64,000 nt of DNA from an uncultured Spirochaetales bacterium (GTDB taxonomy: Bacteria > Spirochaetota > Spirochaetia > CAYLLE01), in assembly GCA_964384485.1 (NCBI GenBank), contig CAYLLE010000003.1, positions 9,125 through 73,124 on the forward strand, written 5' to 3'. Below the pieces are notes generated by a model, which was not told the DNA's origin, searched no databases, and saw nothing but the letters and a program-made list of their open reading frames with translations. Shown piece after piece: positions 6,357 to 62,933 of this stretch; position 1 is the first letter of the stretch; each line of letters starts with the position of its first letter. The translations under genes and the position numbers were made by a program.

Positions 6357-6393
6357 CAGCAATTCCCGTTGATGCCGATTCATGTAATTGCTG
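6357..6393. repeat. Partial (left-half) copy of the palindromic intergenic element; forms the hairpin CAGCAATT-21 nt-AATTGCTG
   Basis: TTCCCGTTGATGCCGATTCATGTAATTGCT matches 23021..23052 at 27 of 30 positions, and matches the left halves of copies A and B. It lies between convergent stops at 6355 and 6413. Confidence 0.65.
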
Positions 6394-23020: not shown

Positions 23021-23052
23021 AGCACATTTTTTTTCCGGTGATGCCGATTCAT
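23021..23052. repeat. Partial (left-half) copy of the palindromic intergenic element
   Basis: TTTCCGGTGATGCCGATTCATGTAAATGCT; compare 6361..6390 and the left halves of the copies at 1149 and 36587. Lies 23 nt beyond the GH1 stop. Confidence 0.6.
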
Positions 23053-23074
23053 GTAAATGCTTGGTCAAATACTG

Positions 23075-28429: not shown

Positions 28430-30010
28430 CTACTTCTTCCGGGATTCCCCGAAAAGTCTTTTAAGGAGTCCCGGTTTTTTCCTGTTTCCCTTCTTCTCCG
28501 CGGGAGAACGGTCCTTATCTGCCTTAAAATCTTCTCCGTATTTTTTCCGGTAGTAAGCCAGGCGGTCTTCCATGGAAGAGGAGCTGTCCGGCTTTTTCCC
28601 CAGGGCCTGGTTCACGTTGATATCCTTTTTCCGTTTCGGTGCGCCTTTTTTTGCTGCCGGTTTATGCTGGGATTTCCCCTTTGCTCCGGACGGTTTCCCC
28701 GTTTGCGCCTGGGATTTCGGTTTTTCCGCTCTTTGAGTTCTGCCGGCAGGCCGGCTGCCTGTCCCTTTCGACCGGGGTGACGAGGGTTTCCCCCGGGAGT
28801 CCCGTTTCCGGCTGCTCCTGCTCCCCTGTCTTTCTCCGTGCCGTTCAAGCTGGATGAACTGATCGGCGCTTTTATCCGCCGAGAGCATGGCGTCGGAAAC
28901 CGATTCTACCGGTATCTTCATGTTAATGAGTTTCTCGATCGGTTCAAGTCCGTAGACGTACCGCTCACAGGCAAAGGAAACCGCCTTCCCGGTTTTACCC
29001 GCCCGGGCGGTCCGTCCGATCCGGTGTACATAGTTTTCACAGTCTTCCGGCAGATCAAAGTTAATCACCATATCAAGGTCGTCCACATGGAGTCCCCTGG
29101 CGGCAACATCTGTTGCCACAAGAAACTGCAGCTTTCCCTGCTTTAGATCATCGATTATTCGCATCCGCTTTTTCTGGGGCAAATCTCCCATTATATAATG
29201 ACAGTTGTATCCGTTTGCTTTGAGCCGTTTTGCGAGAATCTCCACCATCTTTTTTGTGTTGGCGAATATCAGCGCGTTCTGCGGCTGCTCCCGCTCTAAA
29301 AGTCCCAGGAGAAACGGCAGCTTTTCATCTTTCCCTAAGTGATAGAGTTTCTGCTGAATAAGATCAACCGTGAGTTTTTCAGGTTCTACAGCTATTTCCA
29401 CCGGATTTCTCATATACTTCCATGCCAGATTTCTCACCTTCTGATCTAAGGTGGCGGAAAAAAGCATGGTGACCCGTTTATCAGGATCATCCATCCTTCT
29501 GAGCATCCACGTTATATCCGGATAAAACCCCATATCAAACAGCCGGTCAGCTTCATCAATTACCAGAATCCCGACTTCGGCAAATGAAAGCTTACCCGAT
29601 TTGTTCAGGTCGATCAGTCTGCCGGGTGTTCCGATCATTACATCAACACCATTATTCAGGAGTGACTCCTGTTTCCAGTATCCCACCCCGCCGTAAAAGG
29701 AGCCGATTTTCAAACCGGTTTTTCCGCCGATGGTGTTGCCGTCCCGTTCGATCTGCACTGCCAGTTCTCTCGTCGGAGCGATTATCAGTGCCGTTTTTCC
29801 TTTAAACTCTTTATTCTCGAGCAGAAGCTGAAAGATGGTTATCAGAAAAGCGGCTGTTTTTCCGGTCCCGGTCTGAGACTGAACAGCCACATCCTTACCT
29901 TGCAGACTATGAACCAGGGACTGTTCTTGAACTTCGGTACAATCCGTAAACCCCGCGTCCTCTATTCCCCCCATAACCTGGGGATTCAAATCAAATTCAT
30001 TAAATTTCAT
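28430..30010 (-). CDS. DEAD-box ATP-dependent RNA helicase with a long basic C-terminal tail
   Basis: Q-motif region, AQSQTGTGKTAAF-type Walker A (VQSQTGTGKTAAF), PTRELA, VIDEADRL, SAT, ATDVAARGLH, HRIGRTARAG. Arg/Lys/Ser-rich tail. Confidence 0.92.
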   Translation of the reverse strand: MKFNEFDLNPQVMGGIEDAGFTDCTEVQEQSLVHSLQGKDVAVQSQTGTGKTAAFLITIFQLLLENKEFKGKTALIIAPTRELAVQIERDGNTIGGKTGLKIGSFYGGVGYWKQESLLNNGVDVMIGTPGRLIDLNKSGKLSFAEVGILVIDEADRLFDMGFYPDITWMLRRMDDPDKRVTMLFSATLDQKVRNLAWKYMRNPVEIAVEPEKLTVDLIQQKLYHLGKDEKLPFLLGLLEREQPQNALIFANTKKMVEILAKRLKANGYNCHYIMGDLPQKKRMRIIDDLKQGKLQFLVATDVAARGLHVDDLDMVINFDLPEDCENYVHRIGRTARAGKTGKAVSFACERYVYGLEPIEKLINMKIPVESVSDAMLSADKSADQFIQLERHGERQGSRSSRKRDSRGKPSSPRSKGTGSRPAGRTQRAEKPKSQAQTGKPSGAKGKSQHKPAAKKGAPKRKKDINVNQALGKKPDSSSSMEDRLAYYRKKYGEDFKADKDRSPAEKKGNRKKPGLLKRLFGESRKK

Positions 30011-36339: not shown

Positions 36340-36586
36340 TCCTCCCTTATCGTAAAAGGCCGTAAGGAGAATCCCAGGTCTGCACTTTTCCCAAAAAACC
36401 TGGAATCCTCCTCAGGTCGGGGGATCAAAACTTTTTTACATTCCGGGTAAGCCGAAAGGCTTTTTGTTTTCCCGTTCATGATATAGATGATAAGTTTGAG
36501 ATAAGGTATCCGCAATTATCCAATAGTATAAAAATGCAGGTATACCGGGGTATACGTGACAGCAAATTTTTTTTCGCGGAAAAATG

Positions 36587-36672
36587 GCAATTTCCGGTGA
36601 TGTCGATTTTGGTAATTGCTTGTAATAAAACAATTTATAAATTTTTATACGAATGTTATCGCCGGAAATTGC
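36587..36672. repeat. 86-bp palindromic intergenic element, full copy B
   Basis: Ends are GCAATTTCCGGTGAT..ATCGCCGGAAATTGC. Colinear with 1149..1234 (same length, roughly four-fifths identical by eye). Lies 26 nt beyond the stop of the 36698 gene. Confidence 0.8.
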
Positions 36673-36697
36673 TGTATACGTGACGGCAGTGCCGAGG

Positions 36698-40713: not shown

Positions 40714-42921
40714 ATGGCCGATCTTTTCAGCAATGCCGAAACCGTTAACAGTGAACCTCTCGCGGCCCGAATGCGGCCAAGGACGCCGGATGAGTACATT
40801 GGACAGGAGCATATTATGGCTCCGGGAAGGCTGCTCCGCAGGGCAATTCAGGCTGATCAGCTCTCTTCCGTAATATTCTACGGTCCTCCCGGAACAGGGA
40901 AAACCACCTTGGCACGGGTGATAGCAAACTCGACCCGGAGCCATTTTATCGCTCTGAACGCTGTTTTGGGAGGCGTAAAGGAAGTACGCCGGGCAATTGA
41001 GCAGGCTGAGGAGCACCGCACCTACTACAGCAGGAGGACCATTCTTTTTGTGGATGAAGTCCACCGCTGGAACAAAGCACAGCAGGACGCGCTGCTGCCA
41101 TGGGTTGAAAACGGTACGATCATCCTTATCGGTGCCACCACGGAAAATCCTTTCTTTGAGGTGAACCGGGCTTTAGTTTCACGCAGCAGGATCTTCCAGC
41201 TGAAGCCGCTTTCACGGGAAAACATGGAGTCGATCATGGAAACCGCGCTGGATGACTCTGAACGCGGATACGGTAAATACGATATCGTCATTGACCGGGA
41301 CGCGGCACAACATCTGATTAAAACTGCCGATGGTGACGCCCGCAGTCTCCTCAACGCCCTTGAGCTTGCCGTAGAAACAACCCCTTCAGTCTTTCCCCCT
41401 CCGGAGGGAGAACAGATCCGGATTGATTTAAATACGGCTGAAGAAAGTATTCAGAAAAAGGCGGTGCTTTACGATAAGGACGGTGATTATCATTTTGACA
41501 CAATCAGCGCTTTTATTAAATCGCTCCGGGGTTCCGACCCCGACGCTTCCCTTTATTGGCTGGCAAAAATGATTCATGCCGGGGAGGACCCAAGATTTCT
41601 TTTCCGGCGAATGCTTATAATGGCTTGTGAAGATGTTGGACCGGCCGATCCTTCCGCGGTCATGATTGTTGAAGCATGCGCCGCGGCATTCGACAGAGTC
41701 GGTCTTCCGGAAGGACAGTTCCACCTCGCCCACGCCGCAGTCTATCTGTCCACCTGTCCAAAATCCAACTCCCTGCTCGGCTACTTTGACGCGCGAAAGG
41801 CTGTGGAGGAGGAGGAACAAGGAGAGGTTCCTTCTCATCTGAAAGACGGAAGCAGGGACAAGGGACTCGGACACGGTGCCGGGTACATCTATCCCCATTC
41901 CTACCGGGACCACTGGGCAGCCCAGCCTTATCTCCCGCAGAACATGAGGGGAAAACTTTTTTATAATCCCTCGGAACAGGGATACGAACGGGAAATCCGT
42001 AATCAGGTACTAAAACGCCGGGAGCTGCAGCTCTCTGCCATGGGAGAAGCCGATCAGGACGAAGTACTGACCGTATCTCCCGAAGACAGAAAAAGGGAAT
42101 TATGGTTTAAACGGATATCGGAGACCCGGATCGCCGCGTTAAACGCTGTAAGGAGCAGGATCTTTTCCGGAAACCTGATTCAACGGCACCATCGGGTGCT
42201 GGTTTCTGAACGGGGAAGCCCGTTCTTGGTATGGGAATCCTTGAGGAGGACTCCGGAGGGACTGACTGCCTACCTCAATCCGGAGCAGGAAAACCTTGAT
42301 GAAGTCGGAGAGTTTACCGCCGCGATGGCGTATCCGGAAAAACCGGTGCTCCTAAAGGGGGACGCGGAAAATATGAGTAAAATAGAAGGGCTGGCTCCGG
42401 ACACGCTGTTTGAACACTTCATCGGCAGAAACATACTTCCGGACCGGTCACACTTTTCCGGTTTTTTCACGAACCTTACCGGACTTCTTGAGCCGTCCGG
42501 GCTGTGTTTTCTTGCTCAAACTGTTCCCGGCAAAGCCCGTCCGATATCGGAACTCCTTTCGGAAGCCGGGGCGGAAAAAAGACTCACGGAGCGTCTTGAG
42601 GAAATCGACAGCAGGCTCCGGTCCGGCTCGGGTTCACCGCTTTTAAACTGGGACGGCAGGGTGATGACCGAAGCCGCGGTTTCCGCCGGATTCACCGGAT
42701 GTACCGAAACCTATGAAACATTCACCGAACCCCGGATCTTCAGGGAACGGGAAATATTGCACTGGTTCAGCCGGGAGGAGGGAATGAATTACGGCGCGCT
42801 CTTAAAAGAACTGCATCCCGGTAATTACCCGTCCATGATAGAAGAAATTGTCCGAGCTCTCAAAGAAACGGAGTTCCAATGGCCCAGAACGTACCTCTTC
42901 TTTACCGCTTGTCGGCCGTAA
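40714..42921 (+). CDS. rarA: Replication-associated recombination protein A (AAA+ RarA/MgsA) fused to a ~290-aa C-terminal domain of unknown function
   Basis: LAARMRPRTPDEYIGQEHI, Walker A GPPGTGKTTLA, FVDEVHRWNKAQQDALLP, GATTENP, GDARSLLNALE, HAGEDPRF, GYIYPHSY. RarA homology ends near aa 445 of 735. Confidence 0.85.
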   Translation: MADLFSNAETVNSEPLAARMRPRTPDEYIGQEHIMAPGRLLRRAIQADQLSSVIFYGPPGTGKTTLARVIANSTRSHFIALNAVLGGVKEVRRAIEQAEEHRTYYSRRTILFVDEVHRWNKAQQDALLPWVENGTIILIGATTENPFFEVNRALVSRSRIFQLKPLSRENMESIMETALDDSERGYGKYDIVIDRDAAQHLIKTADGDARSLLNALELAVETTPSVFPPPEGEQIRIDLNTAEESIQKKAVLYDKDGDYHFDTISAFIKSLRGSDPDASLYWLAKMIHAGEDPRFLFRRMLIMACEDVGPADPSAVMIVEACAAAFDRVGLPEGQFHLAHAAVYLSTCPKSNSLLGYFDARKAVEEEEQGEVPSHLKDGSRDKGLGHGAGYIYPHSYRDHWAAQPYLPQNMRGKLFYNPSEQGYEREIRNQVLKRRELQLSAMGEADQDEVLTVSPEDRKRELWFKRISETRIAALNAVRSRIFSGNLIQRHHRVLVSERGSPFLVWESLRRTPEGLTAYLNPEQENLDEVGEFTAAMAYPEKPVLLKGDAENMSKIEGLAPDTLFEHFIGRNILPDRSHFSGFFTNLTGLLEPSGLCFLAQTVPGKARPISELLSEAGAEKRLTERLEEIDSRLRSGSGSPLLNWDGRVMTEAAVSAGFTGCTETYETFTEPRIFREREILHWFSREEGMNYGALLKELHPGNYPSMIEEIVRALKETEFQWPRTYLFFTACRP

Positions 42922-44002
42922 GGAATCCCTCATAAACCCAGCCCATAGAACCGTCCGGAGACGATACCCTGTACCAGTACCCGGTATTTTTTCCCCAGGT
43001 TTTTTTCCGCGCAGTTCGATAGGAAAAAGTAAGCCCTGTGTTTCCCCGGATTTTTTCTATAAGCGCCGCGTATTCCGAGGGACAGGACCACAAAGGGAGG
43101 TAGTATAAAATCGATTTACCGGTTCCGGGTGTATAAATTACCGGTTCTCCGTCTCCATTGAATACGGAAGGAGAATCCGTGGAGACTACCCGGAAACCGA
43201 GAAACTCATCATGATACCGTGCCGAATTCCGGGAGCTGTACCGGCACTTCACTCCCAGCCGGCTCCTGCTGTGCATGTACGTCCATGCTCCTCTGACCGA
43301 ATATTGAGTCTGTTCCGGACCGAGGATGCTCAGCGGATTTTGTACAGGGGAATGCCGATAGAAGGCCGGATGATACCGGTCCATCACCCATTCCTGAACA
43401 TTTCCGTAACAGCCCGAGACATTGAACGGGCTAACGTCGCCGGTGATCTTATCCACCGGAAACACATGATCCCGGTATGTAAGGTTCGTTTCCTGTCCCA
43501 GGATCCGGCTGTCCCACTTTCTGAATTCTTCTCCCCACGGATAAAGAAAATTCTCTCCCCCCAAGGCTGCATATTCCCATTCCGCTTCCGTAGGAAGCCG
43601 GAAAAATCTCCCCGTTTTCTCAGAGAGCCACCGGCAGTATTCCAGGCAGTCCGCGCGGGTTATATTCACAACCGGCTTTTTGGAATTGCTGCCATGCAGA
43701 CGCCAGGTATCGCTGTCGTTAAACTTCTCCGGCTCGGTGGTATATCCGGTTTCGCCGATAAAGGCAGCAAACTGGCTGTTGGTTATTTCATACCTGGATA
43801 CAGCAAAGGAGGTTAGTTTGACCCGGTGGGAAAGATAGGACAACCGGGGTATACCGGTAGGTTCTCCCCCGGAACGGATGTACTGTTCCAGGGCTGTGTC
43901 ACCCATCATGAAGGCGCCGCCGTCTATGTTGATCATTTCCGGCAGATCCAGCGCGGAAAGGACTGCCGGGAGCAAAATCATAAAATACCATATTTTTTTC
44001 AT
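42902..44002 (-). CDS. Secreted FGE-sulfatase (SUMF1/formylglycine-generating-enzyme fold) domain protein with a C-terminal SH3b-like domain
   Basis: Signal peptide MKKIWYFMILLPAVLSA. GGAFMMGD, FAVSRYEITNSQFAAF, KPVVNITRADCLEYCRWLS, LPTEAEWEYAA, GNVQEWVMD. Tail YWYRVSSPDGSMGWVYEGFL. Confidence 0.8.
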   Translation of the reverse strand: MKKIWYFMILLPAVLSALDLPEMINIDGGAFMMGDTALEQYIRSGGEPTGIPRLSYLSHRVKLTSFAVSRYEITNSQFAAFIGETGYTTEPEKFNDSDTWRLHGSNSKKPVVNITRADCLEYCRWLSEKTGRFFRLPTEAEWEYAALGGENFLYPWGEEFRKWDSRILGQETNLTYRDHVFPVDKITGDVSPFNVSGCYGNVQEWVMDRYHPAFYRHSPVQNPLSILGPEQTQYSVRGAWTYMHSRSRLGVKCRYSSRNSARYHDEFLGFRVVSTDSPSVFNGDGEPVIYTPGTGKSILYYLPLWSCPSEYAALIEKIRGNTGLTFSYRTARKKTWGKNTGYWYRVSSPDGSMGWVYEGFLTADKR

Positions 44003-44034: not shown

Positions 44035-45759
44035 CTACTTTATTTTTTCCGCGGTAAAAATCTCCGCGGCCAAAAGATCAGAAGGATCAACCGTCAAGCG
44101 GTTTCTTACACTGGTATCAAAAACAACCAGATTTCCGTTTTCGTCAACATCCACGATGTTCACCCAATGGACGTACGTATTAGTGGCATCGTTCAGTGCG
44201 CAGGTGGTAATTTTGACATGGACATATACTTCCACCGATGTATCTTTATCCAATTCACATATTTTCTTGTATATTTTATCACCTTTTGTTTCAACCCGTT
44301 CCACGGATATTCCGATGTCTTCAGCCGCGGCCGCGATCAGAAGTTTAGCACCTTCTGTCGACAACGCTCCTCCGCCGCCGCAGTACAGTTTATTCTTTAA
44401 AGCCAGATCGTTCAGGCTTTTCGGAGTTTCATCCTCTTCCCCGATGATCGCATTAGCAATATTGGTAATCCCGGTAAGTTTACACCCCTCCTTTCCGATG
44501 GTTGTATCCTCCGTTCCCAGCTTGCAGTCCCGCCACCGTTTATCCTGCTGCCGCATGCCTTCCAGAATGCCCATAACAGTAAGGCCAAAAGGATCGGTGA
44601 AGTTAACCGGATCGCCGCCGGCGTAAATATACCAGTTGGTTCCGTCCCTGGCGGGATCCGGGGAAAAGAATCTTCCCGCCCTGGCGGAATAGATCCGGTG
44701 TCCCATATCGTAAAGTTCCGACTTCGGCAGATACAGACTGCCGCGGAATCCAGGAACAGGCAAAAAAGATTGATCAAGATCGCTGCCGGTCTGCCCGAAT
44801 AAATCATAACAGATTATGTCATTGTGCGATGATTCTGACTCCGATACAGCCCTTACGGTGTTTGTACCGTCGGCAACAAGATATCTTGGACCGGTCCCCT
44901 TGCGGGAAAGATGAAGCAGAGATCCCGGAGCCGGCAGCGCGGTAAAGCTCTTTTCTCCCTGTTTTCTTCCGTCTGACGGCAAGTACCGGTACCGGTACGG
45001 GACGGAATTCTCTTCCTTCCCCGTCCCGCCGGGTGTACCTGTCAGTCCCGATATCTCAGTAATGCTTCCCGATACCGGCAAACCGGACACCGGATCCCGG
45101 AACATCCAAAAAGAGCCTTCCGTTTCCGCTTCGCGGTATACTCCTCCCGACAGCCGCCCGAAGGGATCGTAGGAATAGGATACGGAGCAGGAACCGGTCT
45201 CTACGTTTACTATTTTACCGTCCGGTGAATATTGAAAATACTTGTCTCCGGTGCTTGAGATATTTCCGTTTTCGTAGGTCACTGGAATATTTCCCGCCTG
45301 GATCAACCGGGATTTCTTATCGTACCGGTAGACGATATCTCCAAGGGGTGTGGCTTTCTGAAGACGGTTTCCGTCCATGTCGTAGGTGTATTCAACTTTC
45401 CAGGCCCGGTTCATCCGCATGTAGTCTCTGGGGAGCATGAATCCCATGGAAACGCATGCATCGCTTATTTCATCAACACCCGGAGCATCAGCGGGATAAA
45501 AATTCCAATCCGGTTCATGGTACGGAATCAGCCCCCAACTTTCCAATTCTTTTCGGTTGATTTTATCCAGCCATGTACTCTCGGGATAAAACACCTCGGT
45601 GATTCTGCCTCCGCTGTACCGGTAGTATGTTACTTCTCCCTGATGGTTTACCGCCGCCCGTTTTCTGCCGCACGGGTCATACAGATATGCTTCCCCGAAA
45701 ACAATACCGGATTTTCCCCGGGATTCTTCCGAACAGACAATTCCTTTTAACCGGCTGCC
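44035..45759 (-). CDS. RHS/YD-repeat toxin, C-terminal portion: last YD repeats, RHS core end, and a 181-aa variable toxin tip. Same frame as 45760..49917, separated only by a TAA.
   Basis: My translation of 45595..45759 continues the YD repeats. Core-end motif IYSARAGRFFSPDP..YIYAGGDPVNFTDPFGL (DPxGL at aa 334..338 of the ORF-track protein), followed by an unrelated tip. Confidence 0.8.
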   Translation of the reverse strand, partial: GSRLKGIVCSEESRGKSGIVFGEAYLYDPCGRKRAAVNHQGEVTYYRYSGGRITEVFYPESTWLDKINRKELESWGLIPYHEPDWNFYPADAPGVDEISDACVSMGFMLPRDYMRMNRAWKVEYTYDMDGNRLQKATPLGDIVYRYDKKSRLIQAGNIPVTYENGNISSTGDKYFQYSPDGKIVNVETGSCSVSYSYDPFGRLSGGVYREAETEGSFWMFRDPVSGLPVSGSITEISGLTGTPGGTGKEENSVPYRYRYLPSDGRKQGEKSFTALPAPGSLLHLSRKGTGPRYLVADGTNTVRAVSESESSHNDIICYDLFGQTGSDLDQSFLPVPGFRGSLYLPKSELYDMGHRIYSARAGRFFSPDPARDGTNWYIYAGGDPVNFTDPFGLTVMGILEGMRQQDKRWRDCKLGTEDTTIGKEGCKLTGITNIANAIIGEEDETPKSLNDLALKNKLYCGGGGALSTEGAKLLIAAAAEDIGISVERVETKGDKIYKKICELDKDTSVEVYVHVKITTCALNDATNTYVHWVNIVDVDENGNLVVFDTSVRNRLTVDPSDLLAAEIFTAEKIK

Positions 45760-48700
45760 TTAATATATCCGTTCAACCGAAATACCGTTACCGTATCTCC
45801 GGAGGATTTCCCTGCCTGCCTTATCGTACCGGAAAGAAACGGTACCGGTCTCATCTTCCGCCGCAACAAGGTTTCCCCGCCGATCGTACCGGTATCCGAT
45901 TTCTCTTCCGGTTCCGGTACTGATCCAGGTCCGGTTTCCTCCGGGACCGTATCCAAATCCGTACTCCATACCCGAACCGTTCTCCGTCAGACCCGTAATT
46001 CTCCCCGCCTTATCGTACGCCAAAAAATACAGGCCGTCCCGGCTCGCCGCTTCCCGGAGATATCCATCCTGACCGTACCGGTATGAATAGAGCACCGTTT
46101 CTCCCTGCCGGATACCGGTAAGCCGGTTCATGCAGTCGTAACTGTAGGAGATGGATTTTCCGTCCGGAAAAGATACTTCGGCCGGGTTCCCCCGGATATC
46201 GTAACGGTATTCAGCTTCATAAGCGGCCGCCTCCTTTATAACCCGGCTTTGCGCGTCATACCGGAATACATATTCCCGTTCCTCAGGGGTAATGATGCTG
46301 ATACAGTTGCCTCCGGCATCGTACGTAAAGGTTTGGGCCGGTCCTTCATCGACCGCGAGGCTGACACAGTCGCCGGCCGGAGAGTACCCGTAGGTGATCC
46401 GGCTTCCGCAGCTGTCGGTCCGGGTTACAACGTTTCCTCCGGGACCGTAGGCGTAACGGATCTCCGCGCCCGAGGGATCACGCCTTACGGTCATCCTGCG
46501 GGCGGCATCGTATTCCCGGGTCCAGGTATTCCCCTCCGGGTCGGTCTCTGAAGCGGGATTACCATTTTTATCATATCCATAACTCCAGTCGTTTCCTTCT
46601 TCATCCCGGTACCCGGTGAGTCTCCGGGCACCGTCATAGGTGAAAGATACACTGCTTCCATCTGCTTTGCTGATCTTTTCCAGATGCCCTTCCGCTGTGT
46701 AGGTGTATTTTACCGTACCGAGTACCCGGTCATGCCGTTCGGTCAGTCTTCCTAATAAGTCATACCGGTACGATATTTCGTTCTTCCCTTCCGTGGTGAT
46801 CCCGGTAATATCACCTGCCGGGTTGTACCGGTACTGCCGGGTGCTTCCGTCTGGATGAAGGACTTCGGTGATTCGGGGTCCGTCCCTCCGGTACTCACGG
46901 CGGAACCCCTCCTGGTCGGTCCGGGACACCAGCCTGCCCATCCCATCGTATCCGAATCTGACCGTCCCGCCGTCCGGATAAACCCGTTTTACGCACTTGC
47001 CGTGATCTCCGTAGTATGACCGGGTAATTCCGCCGAGGGGATTTTCGTACCGTATACAGTTCCCCGATCTATATTCCCAGACGGAGACACCTCCCCGGGA
47101 ATTCTCTTTCCGAATTAGACGGCCCGACTTATCATACCCGTATCCGGTAATACCTCCGCCCGGATCGGTAACCTCGGTGACCCTGCCGCAGCCGTCATAC
47201 CGGAACCTTCTGATCCCGCCTGCGGAAAGCAGCCTTTCTTCGGTACAGTTCCCCCGGCAGTCGTACTCGAATTCGGTAACACACCCGTTTTCCGTTTTCC
47301 GGATAATCCTGCCGCAGCCGTTGTACTGAAGCTCCAGACTAATGCCCGAACCTTCCGCCCGTACCTGATTGTGCCGCGTGTCGTATCCGAATGTCACGGT
47401 TGATCCGTTTTTTCCGGTATACGAAATCATGTCGCCTCTTAGGCTGTAACTCCATTTTTCCGTTCCTCCGGCAGGATCAACAGCGCCGGTTAGTCTGCCC
47501 AGAGAATCATACACGTAGGTGTATCTGCCGCCGTACGGATTTACATATCCGGTACAGTGCCCGTAATCATCATAGAAGAACGCTTCCCGGCCTCCGCTGT
47601 CATAAAGAATCTTTTCCAATTGTCCATCAGGGCCGTACCGGTATTCAGTCAACCGGTTTTCTTCATCGGTGATTGTCTTTATGTTCCCGTTTCGGTCACG
47701 GGAAACCGTTAAACGGCCCCGCCACGAATTAACTTCTTCCGGAAACGCTGTAGCGCCGTAATCGAAATACACAGTCCGGCCTTGTAAGTCGGTTGCCCGG
47801 ATCATCCTCCCTTCCGTGTCAAATTCTCTTTCAAGGATTTCACCGGACGGCAGATAAACCGCGGTACGGTTATTCCGGGAATCATATGTAAACGCGGTGA
47901 CATTGCCGCAGCCGTCCCGCAGCCGGATTAAATTACCCCGGCTGTCGTATTCCCGGGCAGCTTCCGTGCCGTCATCGTACCGTCTGCGAATTTCCCGGCC
48001 CCGGTTATCGAAATAGTACCGGATCCGGTTACCGCATTTATCGGTAAAACAGGCCGATCCGTCCGCTTCGGAATACTCGTACGTTTCGCGGTACCCTTCC
48101 TCGTCGGTGACCCTCCGGACGCGCCGGGGTTCATGGGCGGTGTATTCATAGGTGATGGAAGAACCGTCTTCCCGGGAGATTTGTGTTAGATAGGGTCCGG
48201 TATAGGAAAATAATACGGTCACTCCCCCAGGATCAGTTACCGAGGTGAGTCGATGTTCCGGATCGTAACCATATATGTAAGCCCTGCCTCCCGGTCCGGA
48301 AACTTCTGTTATAAGTCCGAATTTATTCTTTTTTATCCGGCACCGGTTTCCGAAGGGGTCGGTTATTTCTTCCAGTTCTCCCGAAGCACCGTATGTATAG
48401 AGGTACGCTTTACCGGTGCTTTTTCTGTCGGCCGTCAGTCTTCCGAATTTGTCAAAATATTCCCGCGCAGTCTGTTTTTTTTTCAGGGTGATGGTCCCGT
48501 CTTCCAAAATTATTCCGGTTTCAGCACCGCTCTGACTCCGCAGAACTGTTTCTCCGGGGAGGAATCTGGCAATCCCCTCGCCTTTCGGCTCTGCGGATAA
48601 ATCTACATCTCCTAAATAGTAGATAACCGGAGTTCCGGCAGCGTCAATATAGGTTATGGTCCCGGTACCGGTCCATGAGAGTGACGGGTCAGAACCGGAA

Positions 48701-49917
48701 GGAAGGGTATACCGGTTGAGCTGCCCGATATAGCGGGAGTAGTTCTCCTCCTGGGTAAACCGGCTGATGGATTCGTCAGTTTCACTTCTCAAGTCATCTA
48801 TTACAGCGAGACGGCAGGTTGACCCGGATAGCAAATCCCTGTTCTCCCCCGCCGCTGTAAGCCGCCGAAAGATTTCGGATTTATACAATCCGAACACCTC
48901 AATCTCACTCAGGAGCCGCTCGTTCACCGGCGGCCGGGTTTCGGCAGCTATTATCGTCTCAAGCGCTTCTATTGTTTCTTCTATCTGTTCCAACCGGTCG
49001 CGGTAAAACGAGATAATATCATCAATGACGGTAAAACCGCGGGAATACATACCGAAGGCATCGTCTTTCTTCCGATCAAGTTCTTCCGACAGTAATTCAG
49101 AAAGCTCCTTCTTTTGCCCGCTTCCCGGATCATGGCCGAAAATGATGCGGCGGTCTCCACCGAATGCCCAGGACTCGCCAAACGAAATTCCAGTCCGGAT
49201 AAAGCTGCCGTAACTCCGCAGTACAGGTATTCCCCGTCCCTCCGTTACGTCTTCCTGACTGAACCAGAGCTCACCGGTTGAAACACGCACCGGATCACCG
49301 GTCAGGGGAGAGTTATACCCGTCACCCCTTTCCTCTGCATGTTCTATGGAATCAAGAAGAAGCTCATCCATTTCCCTGCACTGATCGAGGAAATCTTCGT
49401 ACAGATCAACACTTTCCTTCTCCGCTGTCTTCATTTTTTCGTCAAGCTCTTCCGGATCCGGGAATCCCGCTTCACCGGGATCATCTTCAAGGAAAAGGGA
49501 GATTTCGGACGGAGGTGTACCTTCGGAAATAAATACCGTTTCCCATTCTGCCGGATAACTTTTTACAACCGGAGGATTATATTCAACCCATTCAACGATC
49601 TCCTCGTATTCGGCATAGTACCCCCAGGTAATATGAAATATTCCGCCTTCTGTATACCAGAAGTATTCGTATCCCTCCTGTTCAAGGTTCAGTAAGTATT
49701 CATCACTGAATCCGCCGGGGTCGCTTGTTGTATCCTTTCCCGCCGTGACCCAGCCTTCTTTTATCACCGTTGTAACCCATTCACCTTCTATCACCTCTTC
49801 ATATGCTTCCTTAATCAGTATTTCGATGGGATATCCGCCGTCCCCCGCTCCCGCGGTCAGCGGATTGAACAAAAAATAGGAAAGTATTCCGCAGATAAAC
49901 AAGTAATAAAACCGCAT
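45760..49917 (-). CDS. RHS/YD-repeat protein, N-terminal 1385 codons: signal peptide, acidic N-domain, YD-repeat shell. Ends at an in-frame TAA.
   Basis: MRFYYLFICGILSYFLFNPLTAGA signal peptide, GDPVRVSTGELW plug motif, and dozens of YxYDxxGRL-type repeats. RBS AAGGAGGA lies 4 nt upstream. Confidence 0.85.
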   Translation of the reverse strand: MRFYYLFICGILSYFLFNPLTAGAGDGGYPIEILIKEAYEEVIEGEWVTTVIKEGWVTAGKDTTSDPGGFSDEYLLNLEQEGYEYFWYTEGGIFHITWGYYAEYEEIVEWVEYNPPVVKSYPAEWETVFISEGTPPSEISLFLEDDPGEAGFPDPEELDEKMKTAEKESVDLYEDFLDQCREMDELLLDSIEHAEERGDGYNSPLTGDPVRVSTGELWFSQEDVTEGRGIPVLRSYGSFIRTGISFGESWAFGGDRRIIFGHDPGSGQKKELSELLSEELDRKKDDAFGMYSRGFTVIDDIISFYRDRLEQIEETIEALETIIAAETRPPVNERLLSEIEVFGLYKSEIFRRLTAAGENRDLLSGSTCRLAVIDDLRSETDESISRFTQEENYSRYIGQLNRYTLPSGSDPSLSWTGTGTITYIDAAGTPVIYYLGDVDLSAEPKGEGIARFLPGETVLRSQSGAETGIILEDGTITLKKKQTAREYFDKFGRLTADRKSTGKAYLYTYGASGELEEITDPFGNRCRIKKNKFGLITEVSGPGGRAYIYGYDPEHRLTSVTDPGGVTVLFSYTGPYLTQISREDGSSITYEYTAHEPRRVRRVTDEEGYRETYEYSEADGSACFTDKCGNRIRYYFDNRGREIRRRYDDGTEAAREYDSRGNLIRLRDGCGNVTAFTYDSRNNRTAVYLPSGEILEREFDTEGRMIRATDLQGRTVYFDYGATAFPEEVNSWRGRLTVSRDRNGNIKTITDEENRLTEYRYGPDGQLEKILYDSGGREAFFYDDYGHCTGYVNPYGGRYTYVYDSLGRLTGAVDPAGGTEKWSYSLRGDMISYTGKNGSTVTFGYDTRHNQVRAEGSGISLELQYNGCGRIIRKTENGCVTEFEYDCRGNCTEERLLSAGGIRRFRYDGCGRVTEVTDPGGGITGYGYDKSGRLIRKENSRGGVSVWEYRSGNCIRYENPLGGITRSYYGDHGKCVKRVYPDGGTVRFGYDGMGRLVSRTDQEGFRREYRRDGPRITEVLHPDGSTRQYRYNPAGDITGITTEGKNEISYRYDLLGRLTERHDRVLGTVKYTYTAEGHLEKISKADGSSVSFTYDGARRLTGYRDEEGNDWSYGYDKNGNPASETDPEGNTWTREYDAARRMTVRRDPSGAEIRYAYGPGGNVVTRTDSCGSRITYGYSPAGDCVSLAVDEGPAQTFTYDAGGNCISIITPEEREYVFRYDAQSRVIKEAAAYEAEYRYDIRGNPAEVSFPDGKSISYSYDCMNRLTGIRQGETVLYSYRYGQDGYLREAASRDGLYFLAYDKAGRITGLTENGSGMEYGFGYGPGGNRTWISTGTGREIGYRYDRRGNLVAAEDETGTVSFRYDKAGREILRRYGNGISVERIY

Positions 49918-49926
49918 AAATCCTCC

Positions 49927-51258
49927 TTATTCATACCAGATACGGTACAGAAAACCGGGTCCCTCGGGATAACAGGGAACCCATTCTGAATCACTCACAA
50001 AAGCCATCGGAATCTCCACGGGAAAGTTTCTGAAGTACTCCGGATAATGCCGGGCGGGAAATCCTGAAGGATCAAGGGGTACAAGGTGTACCGAAAGCAA
50101 GCCAAGGGGACCAGGCATCTCATGATGGGCGCCGCCGAAAAGGAGAGCCCTGTCCAATACCCGGAGGAGTTCATCCGTTTTTGGTTTGATTTCGGGGAAT
50201 TCCTCGGCCAAAAGGGAGCATAGATGCTTGATGTCAAGATTCAGATCCCCGGGGATTTCATAAAATCCCGCGGTTCGCCGGAACAGTACCGTCCGGATCC
50301 GGTCTCGGGCGTCCGGCTCGGCGCAGATGCTGTAGAGGAGACCGGCAAGCTCATTAAACCGGACTGCCAGCTCATCAATCACAGCTAAATCAAAAACACC
50401 GTACGCGAATCCCGGATAGGAGCCGTACCGTTCCAGGCATACTTCACCGGCAAGAACTCCCGCCGATTCGGCACTGATCTCTCCGGAACCGCTTAATCTG
50501 GAAAAATATTCACCGTAGGGAATACCTTCTTCGGGCATTCGGCCTTCCGGGCCGGCCATTACCCGGGAGATATTCCGGAGCTCGTAAGCGGTTTCGATCA
50601 TGCCGGCATAACTCGCGTCGAAGACAATCAGGTCCGGACCGATTCCCGCCAAGGCCCGGGATATTTCCGGAATATCAAGCCCGTCTCCCCGGGCGGCAAC
50701 ATCGGGACAGTAGGTTTTTTCTCCCCCGGTTACTCCCGCCGGTCTTATTCCCGATCCGTGACCCCAGAGAATCAGTCCGTATTCTTCGGCGGGAAATGTT
50801 TCCCGGCCGTACCGCAGAAACTCCCGGAGTACAATAGAGGATCCAAGATTCAGTTCCGTGCCGGGGGGACAGAAGGGGGCATTCCGGACCGTTTCGAGTC
50901 CGTCCGGTGTTTTCAGAAGAAGTTCCGTCGATCCCGGAAACCTTCTGTCCGATAGAATGAGTATGGTAATTTGTTCCGGCTGAATTGCCGCGTTTTCTAT
51001 TTCGTCCAAATCCGCGGCAGCCTGGTCTTCCAAATTGTTATCGCCGCTCATGTAGATAAGGATGGTCATTTCGGGTATCTCTTCCGGCTCTTCTTCGGGC
51101 GGAGGTTCTTCATCGGGTTCTTCCGGCTCCGGTTCCGCCGGATCTTCCGGAAGCGGCTCAGTATCAGCGGGCAGTTCTGTCCGGTCCAAAATCCTGACGC
51201 CGCAGGAAATACATACTGCCGCGATAAGGATGACCGCAATAAGGGCGAGTTTATTCAT
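49927..51258 (-). CDS. Clostripain-like (peptidase C11, clan CD) lipoprotein with Ser at the catalytic-Cys position
   Basis: Lipobox AAVCISCG, then a Pro/Glu linker. ILIYMSGDNNL, LILWGHGSG (catalytic His context), LIVFDASYAGM where the family normally has FDAC. Confidence 0.65.
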   Translation of the reverse strand: MNKLALIAVILIAAVCISCGVRILDRTELPADTEPLPEDPAEPEPEEPDEEPPPEEEPEEIPEMTILIYMSGDNNLEDQAAADLDEIENAAIQPEQITILILSDRRFPGSTELLLKTPDGLETVRNAPFCPPGTELNLGSSIVLREFLRYGRETFPAEEYGLILWGHGSGIRPAGVTGGEKTYCPDVAARGDGLDIPEISRALAGIGPDLIVFDASYAGMIETAYELRNISRVMAGPEGRMPEEGIPYGEYFSRLSGSGEISAESAGVLAGEVCLERYGSYPGFAYGVFDLAVIDELAVRFNELAGLLYSICAEPDARDRIRTVLFRRTAGFYEIPGDLNLDIKHLCSLLAEEFPEIKPKTDELLRVLDRALLFGGAHHEMPGPLGLLSVHLVPLDPSGFPARHYPEYFRNFPVEIPMAFVSDSEWVPCYPEGPGFLYRIWYE

Positions 51259-51700
51259 GGACCGGCTCCCGCAGGGTGATCATTCCGGGGTATATACACA
51301 ATCCGAAAATATCGTCCCAGGTATCTTCTCCAAAACAGATCCGGGAAATTCTAAATTGATCGACCGTGGTTTCTGAGAGTATTTCACCGGTATATTCCAA
51401 CGGAATAATTCCGGTAAACTCACTCTCCGGCGGTATCGACCCGCTGTAGCTGAACTTTCTAGACAGATGTAAATCCGGTACATGTTCTTCTTTGCCGGGA
51501 TACAGATAAAAGGAACCGGAAAAACCGGTAATGGTACGGGAATCCCGATTGCGGATTGTATAGGAAATGAACGCCTGATCCGTTTCAATCAATGATGCCT
51601 TTGAAAATACCAGAGGGGGGTTCGGGACATAACCGCACCCGGAGAACATCACAGAGAGCAGTCCGCAGAAAAGACTCAAAACGGCTTTCTTCCGGAACAT
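51251..51700 (-). CDS. Hypothetical small lipoprotein, first gene of the RHS operon
   Basis: MFRKKAVLSLFCGLLSVMFSGCG lipobox. RBS AAGGAGG. 8-nt overlap with the C11-like gene. Confidence 0.6.
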   Translation of the reverse strand: MFRKKAVLSLFCGLLSVMFSGCGYVPNPPLVFSKASLIETDQAFISYTIRNRDSRTITGFSGSFYLYPGKEEHVPDLHLSRKFSYSGSIPPESEFTGIIPLEYTGEILSETTVDQFRISRICFGEDTWDDIFGLCIYPGMITLREPVHE

Positions 51701-62699: not shown

Positions 62700-62900
62700 T
62701 AGCTTCGCGTACAGGCTTCCGGTGTAACCGGATGAGTTGCCTCTCTTTAACGCGGGATTCTGCCGTCTCCTGGCTTCCGGGTCTTCCTTCCGCTTCTCCT
62801 TCCCGGTTTCCCAGTGGGTCATTGAAGCGGTTGTCGCCGGTTACAGTGGCGCGTCCGCGGCGGATTTTCACCGCCTTCCGTAACAGAACCAGGAGAAAAG
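62700..62900 (-). promoter_or_regulatory. Cobalamin (B12) riboswitch
   Basis: Minus strand reads GGAAGGCGGTGAAAATCCGCCGCGGACGCGCCACTGTAACCGG, then GGGAAACCGGGAAGG, then the B12-box-like GAAGCCAGGAGACGGCAG. It sits immediately 5' of the btuF-like gene. Confidence 0.85.
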
Positions 62901-62933
62901 TACTACGCGATGATTATGATTGTCAAGGATAAC

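Follow-up and report, generated by a model that had tools for sequence, protein, structure and literature searches.

The 64,000-nucleotide (nt) stretch of DNA analyzed here, referred to below as the window, comes from an uncultured Spirochaetales bacterium (assembly GCA_964384485.1, contig CAYLLE010000003.1, positions 9,125 to 73,124), and its minus strand carries a large gene of the RHS/YD-repeat toxin family that is interrupted by a single in-frame TAA. Translation of 49917..44035 on that strand gives 1960 codons and a terminal stop with only one internal stop, at codon 1386. The results presented below indicate that this TAA is probably a genuine and recent nonsense allele, possibly polymorphic. 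Judged from its sequence, the gene is a predicted signal-peptide RHS/YD-repeat polymorphic toxin gene of a Spirochaetia bacterium, the normal product of which would be one polypeptide of 1960 amino acids (aa). An original prediction, made from the letters of the window and a list of its open reading frames (ORFs), had proposed that a single TAA splits a Sec-signal RHS toxin gene of about 1960 codons, and both the translation and a syntenic orthologue of 1960 aa bear this out.

A single reading frame interrupted at codon 1386

The internal stop lies at 45762-45760 in the minus-strand context ...GTT GAA CGG ATA TAT TAA GGC AGC CGG TTA AAA... and divides two entries of the ORF list that share one strand and one frame, the first of 1385 aa opening with ATG (45760..49917) and the second of 519 aa opening with GTG (44035..45594). 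That the two are in the same frame had been noted before, and the ORF list and the translation of the whole interval agree with it. The upstream fragment (45763..49917, minus strand, 1385 codons) starts at ATG 49917 behind a strong Shine-Dalgarno (SD) sequence, AAGGAGG, and encodes a signal-peptide-like N-terminus, an acidic N-terminal region, a weak match to DUF6531, and most of the YD-repeat shell. The downstream ORF (44035..45594, minus strand, 519 aa plus stop) encodes the end of the shell together with the RHS core and toxin tip, and has no signal peptide of its own. Between the TAA and this ORF lie 55 codons (45595..45759, minus strand) that read GSRLKGIVCSEESRGKSGIVFGEAYLYDPCGRKRAAVNHQGEVTYYRYSGGRITE and form recognizable YD repeats, with the GTG (V) coming next. 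The earlier hand translation of this gap is identical to the tool translation, the final V of its string being the GTG itself, and the worry that the gap might hide further frame disruptions has fallen away, the TAA being the sole internal stop in 1960 codons.

That all 574 codons downstream of the TAA are open is not due to chance, because the probability of this under the local base composition is 7.6e-14 and the remaining two frames of the same stretch contain 22 and 31 stops; immediately past the TAA, both the +1 and the -1 frame run into stops after a few codons. None of the 55 codons directly after the TAA is an ATG, GTG or TTG. The statement that the downstream ORF begins at a GTG without a well-spaced SD sequence stands in part. 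A GAG does abut GTG 45594, but a GGAGG that ends 13 nt upstream had been overlooked, and a similarly long spacing is found at the starts of at least two plausible genes of the window (30010 and 24409).

Intact relatives and the lack of decay

The strongest evidence for an ancestral continuous frame is an orthologue in another Spirochaetia metagenome-assembled genome (MAG), GCA_963991355.1, in which the gene (P0125, at locus L005) is a single ORF of exactly 1960 aa. The two loci share a gene order that runs through two TetR genes, a small hypothetical gene, Peptidase_C11, RHS, FGE-sulfatase, an MgsA-like ATPase, a 790-aa protein and a PQQ-repeat gene. The orthologue was found by an exhaustive search with the toxin tip, and had been missed by a word-indexed search in which RHS repeats saturated the candidate list. 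Global alignment of the read-through translation of the window with P0125 gives 46% identity with 8 gap columns, and places the stop opposite Gln1386, encoded by CAG. The original prediction had pointed to orthologous RHS loci as the place to look at this codon, and the answer from P0125 is thus a glutamine in an uninterrupted ORF. The 90%-identity cluster of P0125 holds 4 full-length sequences of 1960 aa from independent assemblies (NCBI, JGI, ENA and Logan) and 1 partial sequence, all of which read ...KRVYQDAQLKG... at this position. More distant relatives with the same toxin tip, 18 in number, are likewise single proteins, of 1826-2159 aa. In these 18 distant members and in 118 general RHS homologues the residue aligned to the stop is most often the D of a YD motif, so that the stop coincides with, or adjoins, the YD position of a repeat. 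The intact collinear orthologue and the continuous distant relatives together lead us to conclude that the ancestral state was one continuous ORF.

The sequence beyond the stop bears no sign of decay. Past the stop the translation is 47.6% identical to P0125, compared with 45.7% ahead of it, and the 55 codons between the TAA and the GTG are 42% identical to the orthologue. A closer relative is found in JGI metagenome 3300037848 (L014). Its toxin is ~84% identical, and its frame stays open as far as the contig edge, the contig beginning 7 codons (~20 nt) past the stop. Relative to this sequence the ratio of nonsynonymous to synonymous substitution rates (dN/dS) is 0.19 between the stop and GTG 45594 (48 aligned codons), 0.21 over the rest of the shell and the core, and 0.10 in the toxin. 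The stretch that lacks a start codon has thus been evolving in the manner of coding sequence, and the gene can only have been interrupted very recently.

Organization of the encoded protein

In the upstream part, RHS repeats are recognized by Pfam RHS_repeat (E 2.7e-103, 15 stretches), and further RHS_repeat matches together with TEN_YD-shell matches follow in the downstream part. The repeats are also matched by TIGR01643 (E 5.3e-72). The N-terminus carries a predicted Sec-type signal peptide, read from the sequence (residues 1-24, MRFYYLFICGILSYFLFNPLTAGA followed by GDG; 49846..49917, minus strand), and the N-termini compared, those of 10 other family members, all show a short polar or basic stretch and then a hydrophobic run. 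No family match was obtained for the acidic N-terminal region of about 200 aa, and the DUF6531 plug (PF20148) is matched weakly at residues 207-259, at 19.9 bits under a cut-off of 24.1. The RHS repeat-associated core occupies residues 1704-1779, or 318-393 counted after the stop (44581..44808, minus strand; TIGR03696 E 6e-16, 58.7 bits against a cut-off of 32.5), and ends in DPFGL (residues 1775-1779, 44595..44581), a predicted site of self-cleavage. In Rhs proteins that have been characterized, a C-terminal toxin is enclosed in a sealed cocoon of YD repeats and is cleaved off inside it by the core motif (PMC10684867, PMC11461821). The features that define RHS/YD toxins, namely the repeats, the core and the DPxGL motif, are thus present in the window gene, while the continuity of the polypeptide, which is retained in the orthologue, is lost here. 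The gene is a disrupted member of the RHS/YD toxin family.

The last 181 residues (1780-1960; 44038..44580, minus strand) make up a C-terminal toxin tip that resembles papain-fold cysteine peptidases. It has no match in Pfam and no sequence match in the PDB, and an exhaustive HMMER search returned 97 relatives. Among 22 aligned family members, C53 and H158 of the alignment (A1) are invariant and one Gln is nearly so; in the window protein the family-invariant residues are Cys1812 and His1917, and the near-invariant one is Gln1790. An AlphaFold2 model of the tip has a predicted local distance difference test score of 88.3 and a predicted template modeling (TM) score of 0.84. Every top Foldseek match of this model has the papain fold and is either an enzyme or a toxin (probability 1.0, E 6e-5 to 1e-3, TM score at most 0.54), among them the phytochelatin synthase-like Alr0975 (2bu3), staphopain, CdiA-CT (8ssm) and the toxin 9l5u. 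On the strength of the model, the tip is a predicted papain-fold cysteine peptidase that constitutes a new sequence family of a known fold.

The boundary between core and tip also coincides with contig ends. Two independent assemblies of the window strain (loci L009 and L003/L008) begin inside the RHS gene at this junction, a MAG contig at 44624 and a Logan contig at 44581, the latter start being the last base of the DPFGL motif. The interval 44581-44624 corresponds to the classic boundary of toxin swapping in Rhs genes, and alternative shells or tips may coexist in those samples.

A recent nonsense allele or an error in the assembly

The original prediction had offered three explanations for the stop: a very recent nonsense mutation, a sequencing or assembly error, and low-level readthrough. 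The first of these fits best. In the simplest scenario a single codon, 1386, which was most likely CAA (Gln), would have become TAA by one C-to-T change. Translation would then end after about two thirds of the shell, and the exported fragment of 1385 aa would have neither a closed shell nor the core nor the toxin. The remaining 574 codons, which have no signal peptide and no good start, would give at best a cytoplasmic fragment that is neither loaded nor exported. The TIGR03696 core, the DPFGL motif and the papain-like tip all lie after the TAA, in keeping with the earlier view that the delivery shell is no longer joined to the core end and toxin tip. The mutation would be very recent, because the part downstream of it is still open and undecayed.

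Several considerations weigh against this reading. The codon is covered only by the assembly of the window itself, which leaves the TAA without independent confirmation. The CAG of the orthologue, a protein of only 46% identity, is two changes away from TAA. A sibling MAG lacks 149 nt around the stop, a gap that could equally be an assembly problem. Finally, that the allele would be a loss-of-function version of the toxin gene is argued from RHS architecture.

The most serious rival is that the TAA is an artefact of assembly or consensus, in which a wrong base was called in a low-coverage or strain-mixed stretch and the real gene is intact. We consider this unlikely, while giving it appreciable weight. 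The source of the window is a MAG, the sequence downstream of the TAA is wholly undecayed, as it would be in an intact gene, and a search for other assemblies that span the TAA found none. None of the three near-identical assemblies covers the codon. Exact look-ups of the 1385-aa and 519-aa products returned no second assembly across it, and the GTDB representative genomes, searched as protein and as DNA, held none either. The JGI metagenome contigs yielded only a relative of 24% identity in place of a spanning sequence, a 127-aa query across the stop found no second spanning assembly among 5.8 billion proteins, and look-ups by way of both flanking genes led only to contigs that end short of the TAA. 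A search of the literature for the accession numbers of the locus gave no match.

Contig ends near the stop point in the same direction. The near-identical sibling MAG GCA_046542195.1 splits into two contigs exactly at the site, contig 33 ending at 45819 and contig 3 starting at 45669, so that 149 nt (45670..45818) with the stop inside are missing; together with the related-lineage contig that starts ~20 nt past the stop (L014), this suggests a stretch that is hard to assemble. The coincidence of the gap with the stop would arise by chance in roughly a few per cent of cases, which makes it suggestive but not proof. It is only moderately informative, because the RHS gene also breaks at 47974, 44624 and 44581 in these assemblies, where such breaks are frequent in RHS genes.

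Other observations argue for the base call. Compared with the three near-identical assemblies over 24.3 kb, the window differs by 15 substitutions and 0 indels (99.92-99.95% identity). Because the differences are substitutions at the density of strain single-nucleotide polymorphisms (SNPs) with no indel among them, the data appear to be accurate at the base level and the strain SNPs to be real. The strain SNP rate is ~6e-4 per site, high enough for a few SNPs to be expected in a gene of 5.9 kb. In addition, a TAA in the contig implies that TAA reads existed unless coverage was very low, for assemblers built on de Bruijn graphs invent no bases. The region of the stop is of ordinary composition and has no repeat elsewhere in the window. 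Even so, a clean in-frame stop in a MAG and a base error look the same unless the reads are consulted.

Structural causes of the sibling gap were considered and rejected. Unusual composition is ruled out by a guanine-plus-cytosine fraction of 0.48 in 45670..45818, at the 21st percentile within the gene. A diversity-generating retroelement or other cassette variation is not indicated, as nothing in the window repeats 45600-45900 in the manner of a template. An invertible segment would be flanked by inverted repeats, of which the gap has none that are meaningful, and mis-assembly through intragenic repeats is discounted by the absence of any DNA repeat longer than 17 nt.

A further possibility, compatible with a genuine nonsense allele, is that the sample of the sibling held two haplotypes. 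A break at 45670..45818 would be expected in that case, for example if a stop allele and a sense allele were both present, and such a mixture would explain why the contigs of a sibling that is 99.9% identical break across the 149-nt stretch. The stronger proposal, that the nonsense allele is a standing on/off polymorphism with intact and TAA alleles co-circulating in the population, is a doubtful extension. If it were true, it would point to frequency-dependent loss of an expensive secreted toxin by 'cheater' genotypes in an uncultured spirochaete.

With a recent nonsense allele as the preferred interpretation, the practical consequence for annotation is that both ORFs should be treated as one disrupted RHS toxin gene, whether it is called a pseudogene or a null allele of this strain. 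The family to which it belongs is modestly interesting in itself, comprising signal-peptide RHS proteins of ~1900-2000 aa with a small protein and a C11 peptidase consistently encoded ahead of them and a papain-fold tip that lies outside Pfam.

Could the stop codon be functional?

A functional role for the stop would require that readthrough of the TAA, or re-initiation at GTG 45594, throttles or separates the toxin-bearing part. The intact frame downstream of the TAA is compatible with this, and the GGAGG ahead of the GTG, with its counterparts at 30010 and 24409, might allow weak initiation there. We nevertheless regard the proposal as very improbable. The frame runs uninterrupted through the orthologue and all 18 other long members, so that the stop is not conserved; programmed readthrough or recoding calls for a stop that is conserved or reassigned, and the orthologue has CAG. 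TAA is the main terminator in the window. Both release factors recognize it, and of the three stop codons it is the least prone to leak. The idea that readthrough throttles toxin production, one of the three explanations offered at the outset, is thus left unsupported. Re-initiation at GTG 45594 is also unlikely. The stop is followed by 55 codons that contain no start codon, and a product made from 45594 would be missing the signal peptide and two thirds of the shell, precluding both export and encapsulation.

Two related mechanisms were rejected. Reassignment of the stop codon is ruled out by the use of TAA to end 24 of the 44 long ORFs in the window, which makes it the commonest stop. A frameshift or ribosome hopping is ruled out by the zero frame, which is collinear with the orthologue codon for codon and has a dN/dS of ~0.19 past the stop, while the other frames close within a few codons.

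Least credible is a natural RHS shell of two polypeptides like TcB/TcC, with halves translated separately and then assembled. Both halves of the window gene are intact and two-protein RHS cocoons exist in the BC subunits of Tc toxins, but no relative shows the split, and no start codon lies close to the stop. Because Sec exports chains in the unfolded state and the signal peptide is confined to the first half, the two parts would also come to lie in separate compartments. Even when readthrough or re-initiation and a functional split are taken together, their combined probability is small.

Operon and neighborhood

The RHS gene is the third in a putative operon on the minus strand. The first gene (51251..51700) encodes a protein of 149 aa that has no family match, and overlaps the next gene by 8 nt; its counterparts have 156 aa at the locus of the 46%-identical orthologue (L005) and 169 aa at a more divergent one (L012). 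The second (49927..51258) encodes a clostripain-family Peptidase_C11 of 443 aa (PF03415 E 4.6e-33), lies 9 nt from the RHS start, and occupies the same place at both of those loci. A small protein (149-169 aa) and a C11 peptidase (443-484 aa) are thus encoded directly ahead of the RHS gene, at 49927-51700 in the window, at 1810-3685 in L005 and at 3039-4999 in L012, where the RHS proteins are 46% and 26% identical to that of the window, respectively. Conservation of the trio suggests that the C11 peptidase processes or matures this RHS family.

Downstream, 32 nt past the RHS stop, is a gene for an FGE-sulfatase-fold protein of 366 aa with a weak C-terminal SH3 match (42902..44002, minus strand; PF03781 E 2.2e-39). 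It sits at the usual position of an immunity gene, overlaps a convergent MgsA-like gene by 20 nt, and is conserved in L005 and in L006/L014 but absent in L012. No typical small immunity gene follows the toxin at the window locus.

Delivery by a type VI secretion system (T6SS) was considered and ruled out. Pfam and NCBIfam scans of the RHS protein reveal no PAAR or VgrG-linked domain, there are no T6SS genes among the immediate neighbors, which include the C11 peptidase, TetR regulators, an ABC transporter and the MgsA-like ATPase, and the N-terminus resembles a signal peptide. A distant member of the family with the same toxin tip (P0131, 1946 aa; L013 1-4957) is encoded directly downstream of genes resembling those of type II secretion and pseudopilins (T2SSF, T2SSG), a possible hint as to how some proteins of this signal-peptide RHS family cross the outer membrane.

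Other features of the window

The MgsA-like AAA ATPase gene (40714-42921, plus strand, 735 aa) encodes ~300 extra C-terminal residues that have no Pfam match. This extension contains 4 SNPs within 80 nt relative to the sibling MAG (42336-42414), 3 of them synonymous and 1 causing A551T, and 2 of the 4 recur in a third MAG; the cluster looks like a small recombination tract.

An intergenic element of 97 nt is present in two copies of 84% identity (1143-1239 and 36581-36677), with partial copies at 6363-6392 and 23032-23061. The inverted motif AATTTCCGGTGAT...ATCACCGGAAATT marks its two ends, its center is rich in AT, and it has no match in Rfam at the gathering threshold. The element could be a repeat resembling repetitive extragenic palindromes or miniature inverted-repeat transposable elements, or else a shared terminator or regulatory site.

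A cobalamin riboswitch (RF00174, 83.4 bits; 62744-62903, minus strand) lies upstream of minus-strand genes, the counterparts of which in the sibling contig are annotated as FecCD and ABC transporter components. These genes are probably a B12 uptake operon.

Comparison with known systems

The window gene shares its YD shell, DPxGL core and variable C-terminal toxin with polymorphic Rhs toxins that form a beta-cocoon, such as Tse5 of Pseudomonas aeruginosa (PMC10684867) and Tse15 of Acinetobacter baumannii (PMC11461821). Likeness in the DUF6531 plug is limited to a weak match, and in place of their PAAR/VgrG-linked domain for T6SS delivery the window protein has an N-terminal signal peptide. It differs further from these effectors in its acidic N-terminal region of ~200 aa, its operon with a C11 peptidase, and its interruption by a stop.

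In the logic of delivery the nearest known analogue is WapA of Bacillus subtilis, a Sec-dependent YD-repeat toxin. WapA is a contact-dependent toxin that has a signal peptide, YD repeats and a C-terminal toxin and acts independently of a T6SS, as is predicted for the window gene. It belongs to a monoderm host, and has a tRNase tip and a small immunity gene, whereas the window gene belongs to a diderm spirochaete, has a papain-like tip, and is followed by the 366-aa FGE-sulfatase-fold gene. The tip itself shares a predicted fold and the Cys/His pair with CdiA-CT of Citrobacter rodentium (8ssm), a papain-like toxin/immunity pair (9l5u), staphopain and Alr0975 (2bu3), but its sequence identity to them is only 9-13%.

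In TcB/TcC, as in the window gene, an RHS shell encloses a C-terminal toxic domain, and the Tc shell is naturally made of two polypeptides. The division in TcB/TcC is, however, conserved and leaves each gene with its own start, while that in the window gene is a non-conserved stop at a different position with no start following. A further parallel is with ordinary nonsense pseudogenes and strain-specific knock-out alleles of toxins, in which one substitution likewise places a stop in a gene with continuous orthologues. The window allele does not differ from these in kind. The event is an ordinary one and not a new mechanism, a lone non-conserved stop in a toxin gene being of a well-known kind.

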